Source: a virus. Taken from it: a stretch of 50,762 nucleotides of DNA. The stretch covers positions 1 to 50,762 of the IMG/VR virus record IMGVR_UViG_3300045988_092582. One strand, 5' to 3'. The translations under genes and the position numbers were made by a program. Under the pieces are notes generated by a model. It did no database searches. It was not told the origin of the DNA and saw only the letters and a list, made by a program, of their open reading frames with translations. Every line of letters begins with the position of its first letter. Position 1 is the stretch's first letter. Of this stretch, positions 11,021-47,805 are shown in pieces.

Positions 11021-11620
11021 TCAGACGGTGCCTGTTTCGGGTGCCGTCTTACTTTTTGTCCATGCCTTCAAAAGCTCTTGCTCCGTATAAGTGTACTGTG
11101 TTTTTAGGTCAATGATATCCCGGTTTTTTCTATAAAACTCTTTGTCTGCTTTATCCAACGGTTTTCCAAGTGCTCTTTTTTCCCGAATACGAATGATCTG
11201 TGCAAATAAGCAGTCCCCAATTTCCATGTAGGCACCTAGCCAAGTCCACCAATGAACTCCTCCTGTATTGGTCTGCGGATCATATTCTTTTGCCCGCACT
11301 TCATATCCAAGGACTCGGTTGATTGGGGCAACAATCATAGAAAAATCATGTTTCCAGGAAATCAGCTGCGGCTGTTTTTGTTTGGATATTTCTTCTCTTC
11401 CACCGTTAATAAAGCGAAAGCACTCCTGAATCGCCGCGTCATAATCCGTCAGTTGGTCAAATTCCACATAGAAGATTTGGAGCACGGCAAGAGCTCGTTC
11501 TTGATCGTTGAAATCTGGGTTGTTCAGAATTTCAAAAATGTCAAGGATGACACGATAGTCATAGCGAATAGCAAACTCTTCTCCGTCTATTTCAACGGTT
11601 TTGGGCAGTCCATAACTCAT
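11021..11620 (-). CDS. Gp15-family siphovirus tail assembly protein
   Basis: MSYGLPKTVEIDGEEFAIRYDYRVILDIFEILNNPDFNDQERALAVLQIFY resembles the bacteriophage Gp15 family. Position is before the tape measure gene. Confidence 0.7.
   Translation of the reverse strand: MSYGLPKTVEIDGEEFAIRYDYRVILDIFEILNNPDFNDQERALAVLQIFYVEFDQLTDYDAAIQECFRFINGGREEISKQKQPQLISWKHDFSMIVAPINRVLGYEVRAKEYDPQTNTGGVHWWTWLGAYMEIGDCLFAQIIRIREKRALGKPLDKADKEFYRKNRDIIDLKTQYTYTEQELLKAWTKSKTAPETGTV
11023..11057 (+). terminator. intrinsic terminator of the plus-strand moron unit
   Basis: Stem agacggtgcc / ggtgccgtct (10 bp, including 2 G-U pairs) followed by tacttttt. Overlaps the 3' end of the convergent Gp15-like gene. Confidence 0.6.
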
Positions 11621-11635
11621 GCCGTGCTCCTTACT

Positions 11636-12067
11636 TCAGTTTCTTTGATACTTTTGGTACTTATTTAGATACTTTTGGAGCTTGGGATTCGTGGCTTTCT
11701 GTTCGCGCGCAAATGAAGAATCAATTTCATCCATCACAGCCAGCATGAGATTACACCACACCGGAATCCCGTTTGCCAAAGCATAAACATTCATACCGCC
11801 AAACAGCACATCACAAACCGCGTCGCCAAACACGCCGTCAATGATGCCGCGCATTTCAGCATCCCGCTCTTTTGCAAAGGCAAAGATTTCCCGCTTGTCT
11901 GCAATTTTTTCAATTTGTGCCTTATACCCTTCCTGCTTTTTATCCAGTTCTTCAAAGGCGGAGTACAGCTTTTCCACAAAGTTGCTGTCAGTCGGGTTAA
12001 AAGATACCTCACACTTCCCATTCAGGGAATATGTAACAAGTCCGCTGTCAAAGCTCAGTTCTTTCAC
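11636..12067 (-). CDS. tail assembly chaperone
   Basis: 143-aa acidic protein between the major tail protein and Gp15-like genes. Confidence 0.6.
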   Translation of the reverse strand: MKELSFDSGLVTYSLNGKCEVSFNPTDSNFVEKLYSAFEELDKKQEGYKAQIEKIADKREIFAFAKERDAEMRGIIDGVFGDAVCDVLFGGMNVYALANGIPVWCNLMLAVMDEIDSSFAREQKATNPKLQKYLNKYQKYQRN

Positions 12068-12070
12068 GTC

Positions 12071-12598
12071 TTACACCTCGTCTGGAGTAAAAGTCACCTT
12101 AGCGCCGGAAACAGACGCCGTTCCGGTGGTTCTTGTACCACCCAAGGTCACATCATAGGGCATTCCAACAGAGCCGCCGCCCTCCCCGCCCAGGCTGGAC
12201 GGCTTAACCATACAGGCGGAATAGCGCTCCGCAAACGCAGCGGTTTGGGCTGTGCCAGCATAAAGGTGTACAATCAACATGTCCTGGTTTGCAAGAGCAG
12301 CAGCGTTCTGCTCTCTGACCGCCAAATTCCAAATCTTTGTGATGGCGGGGTCTCCTGCATCCAACTCACTGGGGTCAAAGCTCTGTGTGATGATCGGCTT
12401 TTTCATGCTGGTTCTGGTGGTCCCCAGGATATCCTTTGTAGAGTCCTCCTGCCAATCGTATTCCATAGAACTGTCTGTGACACGGGTCCCCAAGGGACTC
12501 CAAACAGGTGTAGAACTGTTCCCCGTATTGAGATACGCCACCAAAAGCTCACGGTCTACCGTTTGACCGGCTGTCGTATTAAATTCCATATCGGGCAT
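12071..12598 (-). CDS. major tail (tube) protein
   Basis: ATG 12598 with SD AAAGGAGAG. Size, position and T/G-rich beta composition fit. Confidence 0.7.
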   Translation of the reverse strand: MPDMEFNTTAGQTVDRELLVAYLNTGNSSTPVWSPLGTRVTDSSMEYDWQEDSTKDILGTTRTSMKKPIITQSFDPSELDAGDPAITKIWNLAVREQNAAALANQDMLIVHLYAGTAQTAAFAERYSACMVKPSSLGGEGGGSVGMPYDVTLGGTRTTGTASVSGAKVTFTPDEV

Positions 12599-16739: not shown

Positions 16740-16860
16740 GCGTTCTCCTTTGCGGCTAGGCTTTTTAGGTCGTTGCCGTGACCAACCGCCCCGCACTTTT
16801 AGGCTTGCGGATAGCCAAATTTAATTGAATCTCCCGTAGTTTAGCGACTTCGGGTCGGTC

Positions 16861-22448: not shown

Positions 22449-22688
22449 GATATACCACCCTTTCTTAAATTTCGTTTCCACCATTTATGTTGACCCGGGG
22501 AAGAGGAGTAAGGTGGCACCTCCCTTTTCGGCCCGTCGGCCTATCCCCGGTATTCAACCATTTTTCGAGAGACGGCGGGAGATTACCCCGCCATGCGTTT
22601 CCTCCCATTATCCCCACCCCCGTCTCGCGCAACTGCGGGGCAACATATAGCCGGTTTGGACGCATCCGCCCCGGCAAGCGTACTCCGG

Positions 22689-22706: not shown

Positions 22707-22780
22707 TGGTAGCCAGCTGTGGAGTCGAACCACTATCCTGCGGCTCAAAGCCGCCCGCTCTGCCATTGAGCTATCTGGCC
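22707..22780 (-). tRNA. tRNA-Gln (anticodon UUG), CCA encoded
   Basis: Hand-folded cloverleaf: acceptor GGCCAGA/GCTGGCT (6 of 7 pairs, G1-U72), D arm GCTC-AATGGCA-GAGC, anticodon loop CTTTGAG, T arm with TTCGACT loop, then ACCA. Mismatches close the anticodon stem (G27-A43) and T stem (A49-A65). Confidence 0.75.
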
Positions 22781-39980: not shown

Positions 39981-40286
39981 AATCATTTTCATTATCCACT
40001 CTTTCGCAGAGCAATTCACCGCAGGTCATATCTCGTTCATCCATATTCCAGTTGCCCCTCCTCGTTCAAGAACATTTGTTCTAGTGATTTGATAATATCA
40101 TAGCACCGAGGATAATATAAGGCAATCAGCAGATTTTCACAATTTTTTCCATTTATATTTTGTATTGACCTATATCTAGTGGTCTTTATTTTTATACCAC
40201 AATTTTACTTTTTACGATAGGTTTTCATTCTAGTGAAAAGCCGCCGTCAGGAATCACCTGGCGGCGTGATCTTAGGAGGTGGAGCT

Positions 40287-41627
40287 ATGCAACGAGCTGC
40301 ATTATATATAAGGGTTAGTACAGAAGAACAAGCCCGGCATGGCTTGTCTCTGGAAGACCAAAAAAATAGTCTGACCCAATTTTCAAAATCCCATGGAATG
40401 AAGATTGTCGGCATCTATGAAGATGCTGGCATCTCCGCCAGAAAACCATATAAGAAACGCCCTGCACTCCTAAAACTTCTGGATGATTGCAGGGTTGGAA
40501 AAATTGATCTGATATTGTTTATAAAACTGGACCGATGGTTTAGAAATGTGGGGAACTACTATGCTGTTCAGGAAATCCTAGATCAATATGGTGTATCTTG
40601 GCAGGCGACACAAGAGGATTATGAGACGACAACCGCATCCGGGCGGCTGAAAGTAAATATCATGTTGTCCGTTGCCCAAGATGAAGCAGACCGGACCAGT
40701 GAGCGTATCAAATTCGTTTTTGAGGGAAAGCGGGCGCGGTTGGAGCCTCTTACCGGGAATATACCTTTTGGTTATAAAATTGAAGGAAAATCATTCAAAA
40801 AAGACGAATCCAAAGAGGCTCTTGTTAACGATTTCTTTAAGAAGTATTTAGCCTCCGGTTCCATTTCTAAAACTTCCGAATTTATCAGAGAAAAATATGG
40901 TGTTTTAATGAGATACCATCTTATTGATAAGATGCTGCGCAGCACTACATATTATGGGAAATATTACAATATGGACGGAATGTGTCCTGCCTATATCACT
41001 AAAGAAGATCATGAACAAATTCAAGCTATGCGGAGGAAGGTTGTCCGAAAGGCAAAGAATAATCGTACCTATCTGTTTTCCGGATTAGTGGTTTGCCCGG
41101 AGTGCGGCAACAGGATGGGTGCTCGTATTAACACAAAGCAGACGTATGTGTTCTACAATTGCAACGGACACTATACAAAGCAGAATGGATGCCAAAATCG
41201 CGTTAATCTTGGTGAAAGGAAAATTGAAGAGTATCTTCTTGCGACAGTAGCCAATAAATTTCACGAATACAAGGCCAACTTTTCCGCTCTCAAAAATGCG
41301 GAAATCAACAAAAGGTCACGTGCAGAAATCTCTGCTGCAAAGTCAAAGTTAAACAAACTGAAGGATTTATATTTGAATGATATCATCACACTAGAAGAAT
41401 TAAAGACAGACCGTGAAGCATTGCTTGCAAAAATCAGTGATTTGGAGAAAGCCGCACTCCCTGAGCAAAAGCAAGACTTCGAGAGTATTGATAGGGTGTT
41501 AACCGAAAACTGGAAAGAATCTTACGACGGACTCAACCGCGAAGAAAAACGAGAATTTTGGAGAATTATTGTCAAAGAAATCAAAATATACCCTGATAGG
41601 CACATAGAATATTCCTTAAATGTGTGA
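40287..41627 (+). CDS. int: large serine recombinase (integrase)
   Basis: MQRAALYIRVSTEEQARHGLSLEDQ resolvase-type catalytic N-terminus, recombinase domain, zinc-ribbon CPECGN...YNCNGH, C-terminal coiled coil. ATG 40287 with SD AGGAGG. Confidence 0.9.
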   Translation: MQRAALYIRVSTEEQARHGLSLEDQKNSLTQFSKSHGMKIVGIYEDAGISARKPYKKRPALLKLLDDCRVGKIDLILFIKLDRWFRNVGNYYAVQEILDQYGVSWQATQEDYETTTASGRLKVNIMLSVAQDEADRTSERIKFVFEGKRARLEPLTGNIPFGYKIEGKSFKKDESKEALVNDFFKKYLASGSISKTSEFIREKYGVLMRYHLIDKMLRSTTYYGKYYNMDGMCPAYITKEDHEQIQAMRRKVVRKAKNNRTYLFSGLVVCPECGNRMGARINTKQTYVFYNCNGHYTKQNGCQNRVNLGERKIEEYLLATVANKFHEYKANFSALKNAEINKRSRAEISAAKSKLNKLKDLYLNDIITLEELKTDREALLAKISDLEKAALPEQKQDFESIDRVLTENWKESYDGLNREEKREFWRIIVKEIKIYPDRHIEYSLNV

Positions 41628-41696
41628 AAAAAATTTCCAAAAGTTTATTACTTAATATTACTTCCTCTGTAGTTGCAGTAATATTATGTAATATAA

Positions 41697-41722
41697 TCCC
41701 CGCCCTCATAAGAGAGCGGGGA
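41697..41722 (-). terminator. hairpin terminator between convergent int and cargo cluster
   Basis: tccccgccctc / gagagcgggga (11 bp, 1 mismatch, loop ataa). U-rich tail only on the minus-strand side. Confidence 0.5.
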
Positions 41723-41728
41723 CTATCA

Positions 41729-42211
41729 TCAGTGCTTCACGACAAACTCATAGTACCGGGCAAGCTTGTCAGGAGCGGCGTCCTGGTCATCCAGAAACGC
41801 TTTCGCAATTTCGGCATAGAAGTCGATGTTGCTGACATTGAGCTTCTTAGCAACTTTGCTGTAATCGGAATAGACCATGTTCATAGCAGCGTAGAACTCC
41901 GCAGGGTCGCAGTTGATTCCCCTCTGCGTCATGATCTGGTTGGTTTGTTCCAACGTCCAGTGAGGGCCGGTAGTGCCGTCTACATTCTGCATTGCGCTGG
42001 TCCACTCTTTCGCCTCTTCCTGTGTGAACGGTTTAGCTGAATTGGAATAGGAAGGTTTTCTGTTTTCCCATTGGCAGATAGCGTTGTAAGCGCCGCTGTA
42101 AGCGCTTAAACGTTCTGCCGTCCGTTCGCTCATTGGTTCAACCATGCATTCCGCAATTTTTAAAAGGAGCCATTCTCGGGAGCCTTCCCGCGCTTCGTTG
42201 GTGCCATTCAT
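41729..42211 (-). CDS. cargo-cluster protein 8 (160 aa, unknown family)
   Basis: ORF with ATG. FTQEEAKEWTSAMQNVDGTTGPHWTLEQTNQIM...FYAAMNMVYSDYSKVAKKL. Last gene before the terminator. Confidence 0.65.
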   Translation of the reverse strand: MNGTNEAREGSREWLLLKIAECMVEPMSERTAERLSAYSGAYNAICQWENRKPSYSNSAKPFTQEEAKEWTSAMQNVDGTTGPHWTLEQTNQIMTQRGINCDPAEFYAAMNMVYSDYSKVAKKLNVSNIDFYAEIAKAFLDDQDAAPDKLARYYEFVVKH

Positions 42212-42223
42212 GGCGGCACCCCC

Positions 42224-42643
42224 TTACTCACGGTCCAGCTGTTCCATGCAGCGGCGGATAGCCTCACGCTCCCGCTCATTTGACACAGAGCCCATCATGT
42301 CCTCCAACTGGGCCATCATCTGCTCTTTTGCATCATGACGGCTGTAACCGCTTTCACGGCTGTAGCCGCGATTGCTGTAACCATCTCGGGAGTAGTGACC
42401 CCGGACATAGTGTTTTCCGCGATTGGCGTAGCTGGAACCGCGATTGTAAGACCCGCGCCCTTCCCAGTCTCCGGCCTCGGAGTAACCGCCATCTTCCTCC
42501 AGAGCACAAATTTTGTCAATGTTCTTGATGGTGTCGGTGAGCTTATGTGCCAGCTCCAAATCGCCAGCGCCCAGCTCTCCCTTCCGAGCTAGTTCTTCCA
42601 GCTCCATCTCAAACTTCTCTTTCAGCTCATACAGTGCTTTCAT
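42224..42643 (-). CDS. cargo-cluster protein 7: helical N-terminus plus R/G/S/Y-rich low-complexity centre
   Basis: ATG 42643 (SD AAAGGAGAG). GGYSEAGDWEGRGSYNRGSSYANRGKHYVRGHYSRDGYSNRGYSRESGYSRHD. Confidence 0.65.
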   Translation of the reverse strand: MKALYELKEKFEMELEELARKGELGAGDLELAHKLTDTIKNIDKICALEEDGGYSEAGDWEGRGSYNRGSSYANRGKHYVRGHYSRDGYSNRGYSRESGYSRHDAKEQMMAQLEDMMGSVSNEREREAIRRCMEQLDRE

Positions 42644-42657
42644 TTTGCTCTCTCCTT

Positions 42658-43080
42658 TCAGCATACACGCTCAACAATCACGTTGGCATTTTCCAGCTCA
42701 ATCGTCTCTGTGGAGGTGTTTTTGACAGCCACTGTCACACAGCAGCCACGGGGAACCTCAATAAATGCGGCAGCAAATACATTGAAGAACTCATTAACTG
42801 CTGCAGGGGTGACAATAGCGGTCGCACTTCCAAGGGCCTCGCCCTCCACGGCGATAGCGACAGAGATGGGACCCACTGCCCCGCCGGTCGGGATGGCAAT
42901 ATTCCCGCCAAATACCACCTTGTAACGGGCACGGCACTGATTGGTCATCCCCCGCAGAGTGATGATGCCAGAACCTTCCCGATGAACGATACAATTGGAG
43001 CCGGAAACGGGCGTTTCGCTGAAAACTGCATTCCCATTAGCCGCGATCTGCTGAACAAATACTCCGGTAAATTCAGCCAT
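42658..43080 (-). CDS. cargo-cluster protein 6: BclA-C-terminal / C1q-TNF-like jelly-roll protein
   Basis: 140 aa. The pattern ...IITLRGMTNQCRARYKVVFGGNIAIP...ISVAIAVEGEALGSATAIV...FIEVPRGCCVTVAVKNTSTETIELENANVIVERVC parallels BclA-CTD-type beta-sandwiches. Confidence 0.5.
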   Translation of the reverse strand: MAEFTGVFVQQIAANGNAVFSETPVSGSNCIVHREGSGIITLRGMTNQCRARYKVVFGGNIAIPTGGAVGPISVAIAVEGEALGSATAIVTPAAVNEFFNVFAAAFIEVPRGCCVTVAVKNTSTETIELENANVIVERVC

Positions 43081-43099
43081 AAAATCAATCCTTTCTCAT

Positions 43100-43130
43100 A
43101 AAAGAATACGGCGGAGCCATTGCCCCGCCG
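43100..43130 (-). terminator. intrinsic terminator/attenuator inside the cargo cluster
   Basis: Minus-strand stem CGGCGGGGC / GCTCCGCCG (9 bp, one G-U), loop AATG, then TATTCTTTT. Confidence 0.55.
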
Positions 43131-43195
43131 CGTTGTTGTAGTATCGGCACGGGGCCGAACATTCCGGTCATGCCGGAAAGCTGATGTATTTGGTT

Positions 43196-44011
43196 TTAGC
43201 AGCCGCAACCGCAGGAGCTATAGCACCCACAACCGGCATAAGGGTTCGGAACCTGATAGGCTGGAACGGGACACGGACGGAGCTGGTTGACCAAGTAATT
43301 GTTCTGAGCCTGCTGAGAAGCCGCCAGCCGCAGAGCCTGATTCTCGTCCCGCAGGGCCTGAGCCTTATCCGCCGCAAGGTAATCAATGATGCGATCTCCC
43401 ACGCGGTCAATGGCTTGCAGGGTGTTGCAATTCATCTGCTGGGCCTCGAAGCGCGTCTGCATGGTGGACTTCTCAATGTCACAGCAGCAATTCTGAATCT
43501 GGTTCTGGATGGCAGTGGTGTTCATCACACCCTGGGTAGTGTTCGCCTGGATCATCGCCTGTGTCGCATTTGCGTTTTGAAGCGCGTCATAGCGATTGGT
43601 GCAGCAACAGTCTGCAATCTGTGCCTGCAAAGCGTTGTTGCCCTGCATGATTGCCATCTGGGTTGCGTTGCCGTTGGTCAAAACAGCGGTGTTTAAACCG
43701 TTGATCTGCTGTGCGGTAGTGTAAAAACCGTCGCAAAGACCCTGCTGAACAGTGTCCAGCTTGCGCTCTACCTGGGCGAAGTCAGAGGCGAGGACATAGT
43801 TGTCGATTGCGCCGGAGCCGGAGGGGGTTGCACCGTTTCCATTGCCGCCCCAGTTGCCGCGATTCCAACCACCGGCGAAGATAAACAGGAACAGGATAAT
43901 AATCCACCACGAGCCATCGTTACCCCAGCCCATGCCACCGCCGCCATTGCCGCTCGTAGAACCAGCTGGAACCACAGGCATGGTAAAGGGAGTTTCAGAA
44001 TTAAGAGACAT
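43196..44011 (-). CDS. cargo-cluster protein 5: Gly/Trp/Asn-rich N-terminus with TM, N/Q-rich repeats with two CCC triplets, Cys-rich C-terminus
   Basis: 271 aa, 14 Cys. GNGGGGMGWGNDGSWWIIILFLFIFAGGWNRGNWGGNGNG; IADCCCT and IQNCCCD 40 aa apart; ends AGCGCYSSCGCGC. Confidence 0.7.
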   Translation of the reverse strand: MSLNSETPFTMPVVPAGSTSGNGGGGMGWGNDGSWWIIILFLFIFAGGWNRGNWGGNGNGATPSGSGAIDNYVLASDFAQVERKLDTVQQGLCDGFYTTAQQINGLNTAVLTNGNATQMAIMQGNNALQAQIADCCCTNRYDALQNANATQAMIQANTTQGVMNTTAIQNQIQNCCCDIEKSTMQTRFEAQQMNCNTLQAIDRVGDRIIDYLAADKAQALRDENQALRLAASQQAQNNYLVNQLRPCPVPAYQVPNPYAGCGCYSSCGCGC

Positions 44012-44067
44012 GTGATTTCTCCTTTCAAAATTTGTTTTCTATGCTAAATCGTGGCCACGATTCAAGC

Positions 44068-44292
44068 CTATTGATTGCTCATCATTTGCTGAAATGCTCT
44101 TGCCATTCCCTGCAATTCGTTGAATTGCGCCTGGGTCATCTGGCCGGAGTTGAGAAGCTCCTGTACTTTCGCTTTTGGGTCACCCTGAAAAGTTTGGCGG
44201 AATTCCTTGAACTGTTGGAGCATTCCCATCATGTTTCCCATAGGGCCGGGGAGATTACCGCCGCCCATAGCGTTGAAAAACGGATTACTCAT
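44068..44292 (-). CDS. cargo-cluster protein 4 (74 aa, M/Q/G-rich)
   Basis: MSNPFFNAMGGGNLPGPMGNMMGMLQQFKEFRQTFQGDPKAKVQELLNSGQMTQAQFNELQ... Confidence 0.6.
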   Translation of the reverse strand: MSNPFFNAMGGGNLPGPMGNMMGMLQQFKEFRQTFQGDPKAKVQELLNSGQMTQAQFNELQGMARAFQQMMSNQ

Positions 44293-44746
44293 CGTTCGCG
44301 GCCTCCTTCTTCGCCTTTGCGATTTTTGGCGTACTCAGAGCGTCCACACGGGCCGCTAGAGCGTCCAATTGCTCACGGGTGGCATATTCCACTGCCGGGG
44401 CCTGCGAGGGCTGTGCAGGGCTTGCAGGAGCATTTGAGGCGATTCTTTCCACCAGGTCGTAAATCTTGGTAGTGGGCTTTCCAGAGGCGTCAGCCTGTTT
44501 GAGGTAGATCACCGGCGCGGTGCTGTCCCACAGGGCAACGGCACTATTGGGGGCTACCGGGTACTCGAATGCCGCCTGCCCACCGGGAACCCACACAATC
44601 TGTGTGTTGTTCTGCTGGGGTGGTTGTTGCATATTTTGCAGCGGCTGGGGCTGATACTGCCCAACCCTCAGCTGTGCCATCTGGTCAGGCATAGGCGGCT
44701 GATAGGGTTGATAGGGATTGTAGTAAGACGGATAACCATAAGCCAT
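44285..44746 (-). CDS. cargo-cluster protein 3: Y/P/Q-rich N-terminus plus small beta domain plus Lys-rich tail
   Basis: MAYGYPSYYNPYQPYQPPMPDQMAQLRVGQYQPQPLQNMQQPPQQNNTQ, then IVWVPGGQAAFEYPVAPNSAVALWD..., ending PKIAKAKKEAANDE. Confidence 0.65.
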   Translation of the reverse strand: MAYGYPSYYNPYQPYQPPMPDQMAQLRVGQYQPQPLQNMQQPPQQNNTQIVWVPGGQAAFEYPVAPNSAVALWDSTAPVIYLKQADASGKPTTKIYDLVERIASNAPASPAQPSQAPAVEYATREQLDALAARVDALSTPKIAKAKKEAANDE

Positions 44747-44749
44747 GAA

Positions 44750-45118
44750 TTAATCCTCCTTCATCCAGTAGTACAAAACGATCTCATTCCCGCTGTCCCA
44801 GGTGTCATATATAATAGAATCCTGAACGCAGACCACATGTCCGGACAGAGCAAGAATATAGGTCCCATGAGGGTTCTCTGCTGCGAAATCCGCTACGGAC
44901 ATATCATCTCGGACAATGTCCCTCTCGAAGCCCTGCCTGCGCAGATACGCTCCCCACACGGCGTTGCTTGAAGGCATATCTTTGAGCAGGTTCCCTTCAA
45001 TGCAGAGATTCCAATAGGTAGCGTCCCAACTTTGGCCCAGGGCTTTAGAAATCGCTCTGACTGTGCAATCTCCAACATTGCGTCCGGCTGGGTTTTCGTT
45101 GTAAAATTCAAACCGCAT
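44750..45118 (-). CDS. cargo-cluster protein 2: putative papain-fold Cys-His(-Asp) enzyme
   Basis: ATG 45118. NVGDCTVRAIS (Cys) ... ALSGHVVCVQDSIIYDTWDSG (His, Asp). 122 aa. Confidence 0.5.
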   Translation of the reverse strand: MRFEFYNENPAGRNVGDCTVRAISKALGQSWDATYWNLCIEGNLLKDMPSSNAVWGAYLRRQGFERDIVRDDMSVADFAAENPHGTYILALSGHVVCVQDSIIYDTWDSGNEIVLYYWMKED

Positions 45119-45281
45119 ATTCACGCCGGTCATCGAACAACAATTCCTGCTGCCGGATGAACGCCTCCAATTCCGAAAATTTCCCCTCTGCCGCATATTG
45201 AAAACAGGTGTCAGCGGCGTTGGATGTGGTCCATCCGCAGGCTACCAGCCGCTTGACAAGCTCAGACCCATTCACAAGCAA
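45108..45281 (-). CDS. cargo-cluster protein 1 (57 aa)
   Basis: Hand translated from TTG 45281: (M)LVNGSELVKRLVACGWTTSNAADTCFQYAAEGKFSELEAFIRQQELLFDDRREYAV. Overlaps the next ATG. Below the track cutoff. Confidence 0.45.
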   Translation of the reverse strand: MLVNGSELVKRLVACGWTTSNAADTCFQYAAEGKFSELEAFIRQQELLFDDRREYAV

Positions 45282-45453
45282 AATAACACGTCCTTTGCAA
45301 CAAAAATAAGGAGTCCGTGAGGAGGGCGGCGACGTGTACCAACCCTTGAATCCTCACGTCCTCCATGTCTATATTGTCGCATAAAAAATCCCCGCATGGG
45401 TGGCAATCCAGCTGGAATTATGTGTGGCTTGTGTGATTTATTTTGAAAATTAC

Positions 45454-45482
45454 TTGACACATCTCAAAAATTTTCATATACT
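45454..45482 (+). promoter_or_regulatory. consensus sigma70 promoter TTGACA-17-TATACT
   Basis: TTGACA 45454-45459, 17-nt spacer, TATACT 45477-45482. About 100-nt leader before ATG 45584. Confidence 0.75.
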
Positions 45483-45583
45483 AGTACTGCGGAGATGGCT
45501 ATAAAGCCTGCCTCTGCCAAGCTACGAACATGGGGGGTTGCGCTTATGCGTAGCTCCCCACAAAACTTTTAGGTGGGATAGAT

Positions 45584-46168
45584 ATGTTAAGGGGCGCTGT
45601 CTTTGTAGACCATATGAATTTTAATATCGCCGTAGGCGACTACTACAATTCTCTCGGGAAAAAAACGCCAAATTTGGATTACAATACGGTTTTTTGCGGC
45701 GTAGTCAGCTTGATCCCCGGCATCAGCTATACAAAAACTACGATTTTCGCGCCAGAGCCGGACTCCTTTCTTATGCAAGACCCATATCTTGCAAAATACT
45801 ACAAATGGGTACAGGGTATGAGAAACGCAAGATATCTGGACGTTGTGGAAGGGCGGTATATTGGACGCCCCGTGATTGACACGGCCCCCATGGACATCAG
45901 AGACAAATCCACATATTATAAGGTCGAAAAAGGCACGGACATCAATCTGGCTATTTACGCACTCAGCAAGGCATACAACAATGCGTATGACGTTGCCTTT
46001 GTTCTCAGTGCAGACACAGATTACATCAGTCTTTACCGACAACTGAAAATGATTGGAAAGCTGGTTGTGGCCGTAGCGGTCAAGGGTCAGAATTTGCGAA
46101 AGGTCATCCCAGAAGTAGATGATTATCTTATTTTGGATGATACCTTTTTCTCTCAATACACTAGATGA
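45584..46168 (+). CDS. NYN/LabA-like (PIN-related) nuclease-domain protein (moron)
   Basis: GAVFVDHMNF ... KGTDINLAIYAL ... DVAFVLSADTDYISLYRQLKMIGKLVVAV follows the NYN/LabA motif order. Has its own promoter and terminator and is AT-rich. The antisense 189-aa ORF is rejected. Confidence 0.75.
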   Translation: MLRGAVFVDHMNFNIAVGDYYNSLGKKTPNLDYNTVFCGVVSLIPGISYTKTTIFAPEPDSFLMQDPYLAKYYKWVQGMRNARYLDVVEGRYIGRPVIDTAPMDIRDKSTYYKVEKGTDINLAIYALSKAYNNAYDVAFVLSADTDYISLYRQLKMIGKLVVAVAVKGQNLRKVIPEVDDYLILDDTFFSQYTR

Positions 46169-46170
46169 AA

Positions 46171-46207
46171 AGAGCCGGGGATTACCCGGCTCTTTCTTTT
46201 TGTTTTA
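46171..46207 (+). terminator. intrinsic terminator of the NYN unit
   Basis: agagccggg / cccggctct 9-bp stem, loop gatta, then ttctttttgtttt. Confidence 0.75.
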
Positions 46208-46439
46208 GCCGTTCAGCTGTCCGCTGGACCTCCTGCATAATGTGAGGCAAATGGTGCGAAACCGTTGACCGTTCCCACCCGAGTTCCGCCGCGATGTCCA
46301 CTTGCGGACACTTCTCAACGATATATCGTCGGGCGATCAATTCATCATCCCGGTGTAGGGCAGCTTCCCGGATGGCTGTTTCCAATTCTGAGCGCAAGAG
46401 GTCCGCTAACTCTGGCGGCAGCTTCACTCTTGCGCTCAT
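46182..46439 (-). CDS. small sigma-70 region-4-like / HTH DNA-binding protein
   Basis: DELIARRYIVEKCPQVDIAAELGWERSTVSHHLPHIMQEV resembles a sigma region 4 / LuxR-type HTH. 85 aa, follows the endolysin gene. Confidence 0.5.
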   Translation of the reverse strand: MSARVKLPPELADLLRSELETAIREAALHRDDELIARRYIVEKCPQVDIAAELGWERSTVSHHLPHIMQEVQRTAERLKQKERAG

Positions 46440-46461
46440 TGGTTCACGTCCTTTCAGGTGT

Positions 46462-47805
46462 TCAGGCTTTTCCGAATTTCTGATGATACCTGTACAGCAT
46501 CACGGCAAACTGCCTGCGGGTAACGGGCTGGTCCAGCATCATGTCGCCGTTCGTGTTGCCCAGCATAATGCCGTTCTCCTGCACCCACTGGACCGCCAGA
46601 TCACTTTCAGAAGGATTGTCCACAGTTTCCTCCTTCCAGGCAATCCCCAGATAGTTCAGGATGCCCTTTGCTTCCGCTTCCGCTAGTTTTTGCCGGTATG
46701 CGGAGTTTTTGAGATTTGCGGTGTCTGTTTGATTGGTGTGGAAGCCATGCTCGATCAGAACAGCCGGAGCCACGGTGCCTTTCAAGACATACAGCGACGA
46801 GTCCGCCACAATCGGTGTAGACCTGACAGTAATTCCGGCGTCTTTGACGGCCTCCAGGATATCCTTTGCCGCCTTATAGCCGCTCCCGCTGGTCTTATAG
46901 ACATATGCGCTCCAGCCAGAGGCAGAAGACCAGCCTCCATCTCCAGCGGCGTTGCTGTGCAGGCTCACGAACAAATCCAGGTCTTTGATGGCGTTTGCAA
47001 TCGCACACCGCTGCGCAAGGCTGACTTCCCCGCCGCCAGTCCTGGTCATGGTGACGGCAATGCTATGCCGCTCCAGGATGCTCTGAATGCGTTTCCCCAT
47101 GTCCAGGGCAAACTCATGCTCATAATAGGTTCCGTCCGGGCTTTTGTTGGCGAGGTTTCCCGCGTCATGGCCCGGGTCCAGGACCACCTTCTTCTTTCCC
47201 ACAGTTGTCTCCCCTTTCTTGAGATAGACCAGAATCAAATCATGCACGTTCCTGCTGCTCTGGATGACCGCTCCATTGAAATAACACTGGCTGGAGCCGC
47301 CGCTATCCAGCATAACCGCGGAATCCCATCCTGCCGCCGCCAAATCGTCTCTGAGGGCTTCCGGCGTCCGGGTCATACTCCCTCCGTCCCTCGTACAGTA
47401 CAGGGCCAGAGAGCCGCCCTTGACGCCAATGGCAGAGCGCCCACGTTTGCCGCCCTGCCCCTCGTCATAGATCAATTTGGAGAGTGGCTTTCCGGAAACA
47501 ATCAGCGGTGTGCAAGTGATATAATTGCGCTGAGAGGCGTCTGGCAGCGTGTCCATAGAAATGTCCGGCCCATCATTCCAGGAGTAGCCGGAGACTGTGT
47601 AATCCGGTTTGCAGAGTACCTTCCCGTCTGCTTTCAGGTGGCAATTAGGTACAAACGTGCTCATGTTGTAGAGCGTGCCGTTGAGGATGTAATCCGCCCC
47701 GGTCTCCCTCTGAATTTGAGAGAGAGACCGGCGAGCGGTGTTGATGTAAAGCTGGATGCGCTGGATCTCTTTCAGGGGGATTGTTACCGCCAGATGGTCA
47801 GGCAT
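46462..47805 (-). CDS. three-domain endolysin: phosphodiester glycosidase (DUF2233/NAGPA-like), Amidase_3, SLH-like wall-binding repeat
   Basis: ATG 47805 (SD GGGGAGTGGTGG). GKRGRSAIGVKGGSLALYCTRDG...AVMLDSGGSSQ; VVLDPGHDAGN...LFVSLHSNAAG...IEHGFHTN; AVQWVQENGIMLGNTNGDMMLDQPVTRRQFAVMLYRY. Confidence 0.8.
   Translation of the reverse strand: MPDHLAVTIPLKEIQRIQLYINTARRSLSQIQRETGADYILNGTLYNMSTFVPNCHLKADGKVLCKPDYTVSGYSWNDGPDISMDTLPDASQRNYITCTPLIVSGKPLSKLIYDEGQGGKRGRSAIGVKGGSLALYCTRDGGSMTRTPEALRDDLAAAGWDSAVMLDSGGSSQCYFNGAVIQSSRNVHDLILVYLKKGETTVGKKKVVLDPGHDAGNLANKSPDGTYYEHEFALDMGKRIQSILERHSIAVTMTRTGGGEVSLAQRCAIANAIKDLDLFVSLHSNAAGDGGWSSASGWSAYVYKTSGSGYKAAKDILEAVKDAGITVRSTPIVADSSLYVLKGTVAPAVLIEHGFHTNQTDTANLKNSAYRQKLAEAEAKGILNYLGIAWKEETVDNPSESDLAVQWVQENGIMLGNTNGDMMLDQPVTRRQFAVMLYRYHQKFGKA

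Follow-up and report, generated by a model that had tools for sequence, protein, structure and literature searches.

A cassette of eight minus-strand open reading frames (ORFs), named g1-g8, lies at positions 41729-45281 of IMG/VR virus record IMGVR_UViG_3300045988_092582, whose whole analysed stretch of 50,762 nucleotides (nt) is called the window here. Its six-gene core, g2-g7, is fixed in order among tailed phages of gut and rumen Clostridia, and the operon is conserved, mobile and dispensable, has RNA elements of its own and was seen only in phage or prophage contexts. We tentatively interpret it as a self-contained phage operon whose products assemble with each other, and neither as a set of independent morons nor as spore cargo. 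The latter had been proposed in an earlier reading of the sequence alone, in which the eight genes were taken for a phage-carried cassette that remodels the spore or cell surface of a sporulating Clostridia host. The ORFs of the cassette, and the gene x_85 upstream of them, are as follows (aa, amino acids).

45108..45281, minus strand: g1, 57 aa, TTG start; its 3' end overlaps the start of g2
44750..45118, minus strand: g2, 122 aa with a Cys-His-Asp triad; the full ORF reaches 45196 (148 aa)
44285..44746, minus strand: g3, 153 aa
44068..44292, minus strand: g4, 74 aa
43196..44011, minus strand: g5, 271 aa
42658..43080, minus strand: g6, 140 aa
42224..42664, minus strand: g7, 146 aa
41729..42211, minus strand: g8, 160 aa, DUF7841
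46182..46439, minus strand: x_85, 85-aa helix-turn-helix protein, encoded directly after the endolysin gene

The start of g2 is most likely the 27th codon of the 148-aa ORF (position 45118, giving the 122-aa product), because the homologues begin there. Neighbouring genes from g1 to g8 overlap or are separated by a few bases, except at the spacers between g4 and g5 (56 nt) and between g5 and g6 (115 nt).

Conservation, movement and loss of the cassette

A scan of representative bacterial genomes with g6 gave at least one locus. A scan of IMG/VR with g6 gave 75 loci, and profiles were then iterated over a set of 83 sequences, consisting of 82 related loci and the window (single loci are denoted below by L and a number). 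With the iterated profiles, each of g2, g3, g4, g5, g6 and g7 was found in 79-82 of the 83 sequences, and the misses fall at contig ends. Wherever a contig spans the cassette from end to end, the genes come in the identical order: x_85, then a variable slot (0-2.8 kb), then g1, g2, g3, g4, g5, g6, g7. The optional members are x_85 (63 loci), g1 (53 loci) and g8 (19 loci). The clustering of g2-g7 is thus far beyond chance. The sequence-only reading had suggested looking for co-occurrence as a conserved cluster, and the homologues indeed keep a fixed order in about 80 loci and are not scattered. The most conserved member is g6, with 63-100% identity across loci, while g5 and g3 are the most divergent; the same core is kept at 38-45% g6 identity in Butyrivibrio virus Ceridwen and in L090. 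The g6 family has 7143 homologues, each representing a sequence cluster at 90% identity, which reduce to 655 clusters at 50% identity, and one g6 variant occurs on at least 1,000 contigs. With more than 7,000 such clusters for g6, the cassette is among the more frequent sets of unexplained genes known from phages that infect human-gut and rumen Clostridia.

The cassette is not tied to one place in the genome. Its usual place, in most loci, is after the tail and lysis genes, with which it shares the strand. Dulem virus 33 (GenBank) has it between lysin and integrase, and Ceridwen carries g2-g7 downstream of the endolysin, with g6 and g7 separated by an additional ORF. In Dulem virus 35, a complete temperate genome, g2-g7 lie between a minor-capsid gene and the scaffold and major-capsid genes, and just two small genes occupy the slot between lysis genes and integrase. 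In Dulem virus 39, g5 and g6 come after the integrase and replication genes, and a contig with a 38%-identical g6 has the same run of gene sizes beside genes for SSB, HU and an integrase. A partial relative is found in Clostridium perfringens phage CPD1, where g3-like and g5-like genes enclose a g4-sized, Q/M-rich gene. From these differing positions it follows that the cassette moves as a unit. Every context retrieved belongs to a phage or prophage. The lysogenic-conversion slot between lysis genes and integrase, to which the sequence-only reading had assigned the cassette, therefore describes the window but not Dulem virus 35, where the cassette stands among head genes.

In the window itself both the ORFs and the flanks agree with the earlier description of eight minus-strand genes between lysis genes and integrase. 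The flank on the side of the late operon consists of a Hol44 holin, an endolysin with NAGPA and Amidase_3 domains and an opposite-strand NYN gene, and on the other flank is the convergent gene of a large serine recombinase (int). The guanine-plus-cytosine (GC) fraction of the cluster, 0.533, resembles that of the phage core (0.490 for window 1-37000) and not that of the AT-rich morons (0.441 for the NYN gene), again as the earlier reading had it; the value for int is 0.411. The variable slot corresponds to window 45282-46181 and contains the opposite-strand NYN gene here and in L102. In the near-identical prophage L078 (6559-7436) it contains a SocA/Panacea pair, and in many loci it is empty. 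Since its contents differ in this way, the true moron hotspot is this slot between x_85 and the RNA leader of the cassette, upstream of the cassette, and not the cassette itself.

A second scan was anchored on the endolysin. Most of the close relatives obtained in this way carry it, the exceptions being L109, L098, L102 and L103. In L109 the lysin (97.4% identical) is joined directly to sequence matching window 41788..40008 (99.3% identical), so that L109 10345-10457, which corresponds to window 46484..41788, marks a clean deletion from x_85 through most of g8. In L098, with the same lysin, no cassette was found within 6 kb downstream. Because of L098 and of the L109 deletion between near-identical flanks, the cassette is dispensable for the phage.

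On the other hand, L102 and L103 have an altered cassette. They keep the leader, g1 and the end of g8 but have no g2, their g3, g4 and g5 are diverged, and a 131-aa protein with an N-terminal Cys cluster is in the place of g6. Likewise, in CPD1 a 125-aa protein with Cys clustered at the N-terminus follows g5 in place of g6. The 131-aa protein of L102 and the 125-aa protein of CPD1 are homologous (36% identity, E 3e-12). No relationship between g6 and these alternatives was detectable, and a comparison of the two with PDB sequences gave nothing meaningful. Therefore, the slot after g5 is exchangeable and takes one of two different partner proteins. L102 also encodes a 254-aa protein in which an R/Y-rich low-complexity N-terminal region is fused to DUF7841, and this fusion argues that g7-type and g8-type proteins are functionally linked. 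The variant cassette with these features (no g2, replaced g6, R/Y-DUF7841 fusion) can be seen at L102 11490-14640 and L087 4364-6798.

Insertions were observed at two junctions. HNH homing endonucleases (NUMOD4 plus HNH_3) occur on the opposite strand at the g4/g5 junction, beside a palindrome described below, for example at L001 9750-10301 and L061 4252-4794. Between g6 and g7, some loci and Ceridwen contain an uncharacterised ORF of 264-274 aa (for example L068 6458-7282 and L082 7518-8312), for which the sole Pfam result was that the Ceridwen copy weakly matches HTH_17 at its C-terminus. Judging from its motifs, this insert may be another homing endonuclease.

Proteins of the cassette

The protein g6 can be assigned with confidence, on the basis of its model, as a stand-alone jelly-roll like those of TNF, C1q and the C-terminal domain (CTD) of BclA, which is the fold that the sequence-only reading had proposed. 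The AlphaFold2 (AF2) model, built from a diverse alignment, is all-beta with a predicted local distance difference test (pLDDT) score of 96.4. In a Foldseek search against PDB, the top match was the F-BclA CTD (9h38, E 2.5e-7, template modelling (TM) score 0.69-0.79). The BclA-type structures 9h38, 1wck and 3tyj together have E values from 2.5e-7 to 9e-6 and TM scores of 0.68-0.79, and the matches to 7r1m (ExsFA), 8d02 (BxpB) and 9h3d have TM scores of 0.66-0.76. An ExsF-F-Anchor complex was also matched, followed by TNF ligands and some phage fibre or spike knobs. Against BFVD, the matches are stand-alone gut-phage proteins of 135-140 aa with TM scores up to 0.93, a few of them labelled 'BclA protein'.

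At the level of sequence, no membership in exosporium protein families was found. The identity of g6 to the exosporium protein structures is 8-17%, and scans of g6 against Pfam (including BclA_C, PF18573) and NCBIfam gave no family at E <= 1. None of the cassette proteins matched the exosporium leader TIGR03720, and g6 has no collagen-like GXY stalk. In the model, g6 starts directly with a beta-strand, with no N-terminal attachment segment. For the 655 clusters at 50% identity, 150 representatives were listed; none of these exceeds 205 aa, and therefore no long-stalk fusion was seen among them. Conserved Cys clusters are present in both g5 and g6.

The sequence-only reading had described g2 as a papain-fold Cys-His enzyme. 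Its catalytic part is supported by the triad C19, H95 and D106, which is invariant in a 13-sequence alignment; in a set of 58 sequences the His (H94) and the Asp (D105) remain invariant, and the Cys (C18) shows a conservation of 90% or more. The fold matches are all weak: from an AF2 model with pLDDT 95.2, the top Foldseek matches were all papain-like (the C39 domain of ComA, staphopain, Josephin and Tae4), with E values of 0.2-1 and TM scores of at most 0.49. The protein matches phrog_3754. Searches with g2 and its family members against Pfam, NCBIfam and PDB sequences gave no peptidase family, such as Peptidase_C39, and no other match. Members of the g2 family are also found singly, within stretches of early or unassigned genes, in Geobacillus phage GBK2, Bacillus Tsamsa-like phages and Prevotella Lak megaphages; L085 4992-5381 and L086 3980-4375 are examples.

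For the remaining proteins, the compositions reported earlier for g3 (Y/P/Q-rich with a Lys-rich tail), g4 (M/Q/G-rich), g5 (Gly/Trp/Asn-rich with CCC triplets) and g7 (R/G/S/Y low complexity) were borne out. From the alignment, g3 has a Q/P/Y-rich N-terminus, a conserved beta-rich core of about 60 aa, a coiled-coil stretch and the Lys-rich tail, and matches phrog_21718. The Q/M/G-rich g4 has a conserved N-terminus, MxNPxFNAMGG, and matches phrog_22984 and, faintly (E 0.03), a PHROG of internal head proteins. In g5 a Gly/Trp-rich N-terminus and one short hydrophobic segment are followed by a Q/N-rich helical region containing CCC. Its alignment has MSLSSD..MPV.PA at the N-terminus, the hydrophobic segment flanked by Gly and Trp, an invariant CCC, and P.PVPAYQVPNPY followed by the Cys cluster at the C-terminus, with a variable middle containing insertions and deletions. 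The copy in the window contains 14 Cys in all and two CCC motifs, at residues 135 and 175; it ends in CGCYSSCGCGC and matches phrog_16490. As a single CCC is the rule among relatives, the second CCC and an extra internal segment suggest that part of the window copy was duplicated. In g7, helical ends surround an R/G/S/Y low-complexity core, and the protein matches phrog_28802.

The protein g8 is Pfam DUF7841 (PF25223, E 2.8e-34), and this was the only result when all eight proteins were scanned against Pfam, NCBIfam and PADLOC, apart from a single weak PADLOC match of g5 to PDC-M16A covering residues 117-238 only (E 0.0026). No family in Pfam, NCBIfam or PHROGs matched g1, and g3, g7 and g8 gave nothing meaningful against PDB sequences. 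From the PHROG matches it follows that the families of g2-g7 are already catalogued in phages, none with a function. The earlier statement that none of the eight genes belongs to a nameable family therefore stands for g2-g7 in so far as function is concerned, and fails for g8. No paper on DUF7841 or on RAGATH-31, the leader RNA treated below, was found in our literature search. No signal peptide was seen in any cassette protein when the sequences were read by eye. Outside the cassette proper, several members of the x_85 family have weak Pfam matches to KorA and to sigma-70 region 4, and x_85 is a candidate regulator of the cassette.

RNA and DNA control elements

Three conserved non-coding elements lie within or directly before the cassette, and an inverted repeat follows it.

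45310..45364, minus strand: leader RNA RAGATH-31 (RF03101), just upstream of g1 and followed by a U-run
44047..44062, no strand: perfect 16-bp palindrome with the halves AATCGTGG and CCACGATT, about 35 nt upstream of the g5 start
43100..43191, minus strand: three-hairpin RNA in the g5-g6 spacer, with a covarying hairpin H1, a hairpin H2 of conserved sequence and a hairpin H3 that is a terminator with a U-run
41693..41726, no strand: inverted repeat between the convergent ends of g8 and int, with 15-nt arms that are 87% complementary

The three-hairpin RNA is a candidate for a new cis-regulatory or small RNA motif. Its covariance model found exactly one plus-strand match per locus in 81 loci, at 73-100 bits. 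In the alignment 98.1% of the cells are paired and 11 pairs have compensatory changes. The covariation score is 0.433, compared with 0.18 for shuffled alignments (0 of 500 reach 0.433) and 0.05-0.09 for slid controls, and no Rfam match was found at E <= 5. The terminator-like hairpin within it (43131-43108, minus strand) has 10 pairs, 8 of them GC, and a U-run.

The leader matches RAGATH-31 at 79.5 bits, compared with a gathering score of 71.8 (E 4.9e-16), over model positions 1-54 of 54. The RAGATH motifs are for the most part still uncharacterised (PMC11061315). By blastn-short, a RAGATH-31-like sequence was found in 49 of the 78 loci carrying g2, in every case with the same orientation and at a distance of 163-199 nt upstream from g2, and the matches are limited to loci that also carry g1. 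Among the retrieved loci, the motif is in this way linked to one particular set of genes. The window gave no ribozyme match. Upstream of the leader, the repeat CACATAAC was considered as a general regulatory motif and rejected, as it is not enriched elsewhere in the window.

A palindrome centred on GGCC or GCGC, with changing flanks, is present in 20 of the 24 distinct g4-g5 spacers, and it may act as an RNA hairpin or as an operator to which a protein binds. An Rfam match to 'drum' at the same junction (27 bits, threshold 43) was rejected as chance. The internal terminator and the palindrome of the sequence-only reading are therefore both present and both conserved in relatives; the graded expression it derived from them is plausible, with control that is more elaborate than one terminator. 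A sigma-70 promoter scan of the region gave matches no commoner than those in shuffled sequence. At the borders, a perfect hairpin with an 11-bp stem at the point where the NYN gene and x_85 converge (46169-46195) looks like a bidirectional terminator, and the consensus terminator scan gave no call for the inverted repeat at 41693..41726.

Proposed assembly and rival explanations

Our preferred interpretation, which we hold tentatively, is that the cassette products assemble with each other. It is drawn from the fixed gene order, the exchangeable partner after g5, the fusion of g7-type and g8-type proteins, and the comparison with ExsF, which docks protease-trimmed Pro-rich leaders. The products would be made in the cytoplasm, because none has a signal peptide. 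In such an assembly, g5 would be a hydrophobic, probably membrane-inserted anchor with a Cys-rich helical stalk and Pro-rich ends, and g6 would be a hub, probably a TNF-like trimer, docking partner peptides as ExsF/BxpB does with the Pro-rich leaders of BclA and F-Anchor. The conserved Pro-rich ends of g5 and g3 are candidate docking peptides. The proteins g3, g4 and g7, the last with g8 where present, would serve as low-complexity clients or matrix, and g2 would cut or cross-link them. The hairpins and terminators may set the relative amounts of g1-g4, g5 and g6-g8. The structure would form during phage development, independently of sporulation, with phage particles, the host membrane or the lysate as possible destinations. 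A bolder version describes an RNA-gated phage system, common across phages of gut Clostridia, that builds a cross-linked protein structure from a Cys-rich anchor, an exchangeable beta-rich head (g6 or the alternative with the N-terminal Cys cluster), a low-complexity matrix and a Cys enzyme, using ExsF/BclA-like docking outside spores; the infected cell, released particles or the host envelope would be its site. As a whole, this version is rather unlikely.

Several points weigh against the assembly. The maximum hydropathy of g5 is modest (1.29 at residue 30) for an anchor in the membrane. TNF-like folds serve many roles. Since the g2 family is found alone in other phages, g2 may act on host targets instead of the cassette products. 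The cassette is set off from the lysis genes by terminator-like hairpins and may therefore lack read-through from the late operon. In addition, the sample of identified host lineages is small, namely two (Butyrivibrio and a Dysosmobacter/Oscillibacter-like lineage) with C. perfringens for the partial variant.

These hosts weaken the proposal of the sequence-only reading, that the cassette is lysogenic-conversion cargo expressed in sporulation, by which the spore coat or exosporium would gain a cross-linked layer or appendage. Ceridwen, with g2-g7 intact, was isolated lytically on B. fibrisolvens and has no annotated integrase or excision gene; its authors judged it virulent, with an antirepressor-like ORF that could point to lysogeny (PMC7372960). 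The genus Butyrivibrio does not form spores (PMC6249431). The near-identical prophage L078 ends beside host genes, where the neighbouring RNase Y is 95% identical to those of Dysosmobacter sp. and Oscillibacter valericigenes, and the type species D. welbionis is non-spore-forming (PMC13599835). Neither a lysogenic-conversion cassette for the spore surface nor a sporulating Clostridia host is supported by these observations. Scattered homologues, or hosts that mostly do not sporulate, had been named beforehand as grounds for giving up the spore proposal; the homologues turned out to be clustered, and the two host lineages identified for the full cassette do not form spores. The position among head genes in Dulem virus 35, the clean deletion in L109, the missing exosporium leader, collagen repeat and BclA_C match, the exclusively phage or prophage contexts and a sigma-70 promoter scan with nothing above chance also speak against spore cargo, and a literature search for phage-encoded exosporium or BclA functions found nothing relevant. 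Nevertheless, the idea keeps some weight, because the best structural matches of g6 are the exosporium proteins F-BclA, BclA, ExsFA and BxpB, because the composition is rich in Cys, Tyr, Gln and Gly, and because the hairpins set the cassette apart from the late operon, so that its own timing is possible. The products also have no signal peptides, like coat proteins made in the mother cell, and the partial variant occurs in phages of the spore-former C. perfringens. Given the host and lifestyle data and the head-block location, we rate it as improbable.

Among the rivals we rate a virion add-on first, then defence or competition, both of which the sequence-only reading had named as alternatives, and spore-surface remodelling after both. 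In a virion accessory module the products would be added to particles, for example with g6 as a TNF-like knob or decoration on a fibre or internal protein set made of g5, g3, g4 and g7 and matured by g2. The cassette inside the head-gene block of Dulem virus 35, its usual place after tail and lysis genes on the same strand, and the faint match of g4 to an internal head protein all suit this explanation. TNF-like domains do cap phage fibres and spikes (the cyanophage A-1(L) tail fibre, the phi812 spike and collagen-repeat proteins in BFVD), and homing endonuclease insertions are typical of conserved phage genes. However, the cassette pairs with different lysis and structural modules, so that there is no fixed outside docking partner; g6 is the most conserved member, unlike a receptor-binding tip, and has no N-terminal attachment segment; and a close relative is without the cassette. 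We consider the virion module unlikely. Still more doubtful is a role in defence, superinfection exclusion or inter-phage competition, with the g5 membrane protein and the g2 protease as effectors and g6 as sensor. The cassette is accessory, being present or absent among close relatives, moves between genome positions, adjoins a variable slot with NYN here and SocA/Panacea in L078, and is parted from its neighbours by hairpins, as such a system might be. Yet no PADLOC model matched apart from the partial g5 hit, no nuclease, NTPase or other usual effector is encoded, low-complexity sequence makes up most of four of the six core proteins, an uncommon trait among known defence systems, and g6 is highly conserved and not fast-evolving. 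Finally, a chance neighbourhood of unrelated morons with no joint function could account for the optional g8, g1 and x_85 and for the lone occurrences of the g2 family, but the synteny data contradict it: the order of g2-g7 is constant in about 80 loci, whose g6 proteins are 63-100% identical, and also in phages that are more distant, neighbouring genes overlap or leave little space between them, and the junction RNAs are conserved. This explanation is very improbable.

When the cassette is compared with characterised systems, the closest is the docking of Bacillus exosporium proteins. ExsFA/BxpB and the CTDs of BclA and F-BclA, which serve in the exosporium nap and in F-ENA anchoring, share the jelly-roll fold of g6, and ExsFA/BxpB are likewise stand-alone proteins, of about 140-170 aa. 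Clefts of the ExsF trimer dock leader peptides that are Pro-rich, and proteolysis trims BclA by its first 19 residues (PMC12357932). A TNF-like trimer with trimmed Pro-rich leaders resembles the set of a TNF-like protein, Pro-rich-ended partners and a Cys enzyme in the cassette. The differences are the low identity of g6, the lack of the BclA_C or NCBIfam match, collagen repeat and leader, the phage or prophage contexts, and the non-spore-forming hosts identified for the full cassette. With the papain-like clan CA peptidases (ComA C39, staphopain, Josephin, Tae4), g2 shares the Cys-His-Asp triad, near-invariant in its family; the fold match is weak, there is no Pfam or PDB sequence match, and at 122 aa g2 is smaller than most of them. 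Transglutaminase-like enzymes share the same triad, and the reaction of g2 may be cutting, deamidation or cross-linking. For RAGATH-31, the similarity is direct, as the g1 leader matches the full model above the gathering score. Like morons and lysogenic-conversion cassettes, the cassette of the window occupies the lysis-int slot, is dispensable and is surrounded by a terminator-like hairpin and inverted repeats. Unlike them, it has the GC content of the phage core and six to eight co-ordered genes, and occurs also in the virulent-judged Ceridwen and inside the head-gene block of Dulem virus 35.

We class the cassette as a new kind of system, because its ties to known biology are at the level of folds (TNF-like and papain-like) and of an orphan RNA motif. 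No characterised system shares its gene set, and its families are listed in PHROGs, Pfam and Rfam without a function. Three conserved non-coding elements belong to it: RAGATH-31, the covarying three-hairpin RNA and the palindrome before g5. It is directly testable, as Ceridwen and B. fibrisolvens DSM 3071 form a cultured carrier pair and natural deletion and swap variants exist. If the products assemble as proposed, phages would use an exosporium-type docking fold for a non-spore purpose; if the cassette is a defence system or a virion add-on, it would still be of a new type.

Two minor observations remain. In L078, an Amidase_3 plus SH3_3 gene (11426-12124) follows the cassette and is followed by the host RNase Y, with no integrase adjoining the cassette, and therefore the end structure of this prophage differs from that of the window. 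Elsewhere in the window, the other RNA features are a GP20-b RNA (16757-16816), an int-alpA RNA (22481-22551) and a tRNA-Gln (22707-22780), all on the minus strand.

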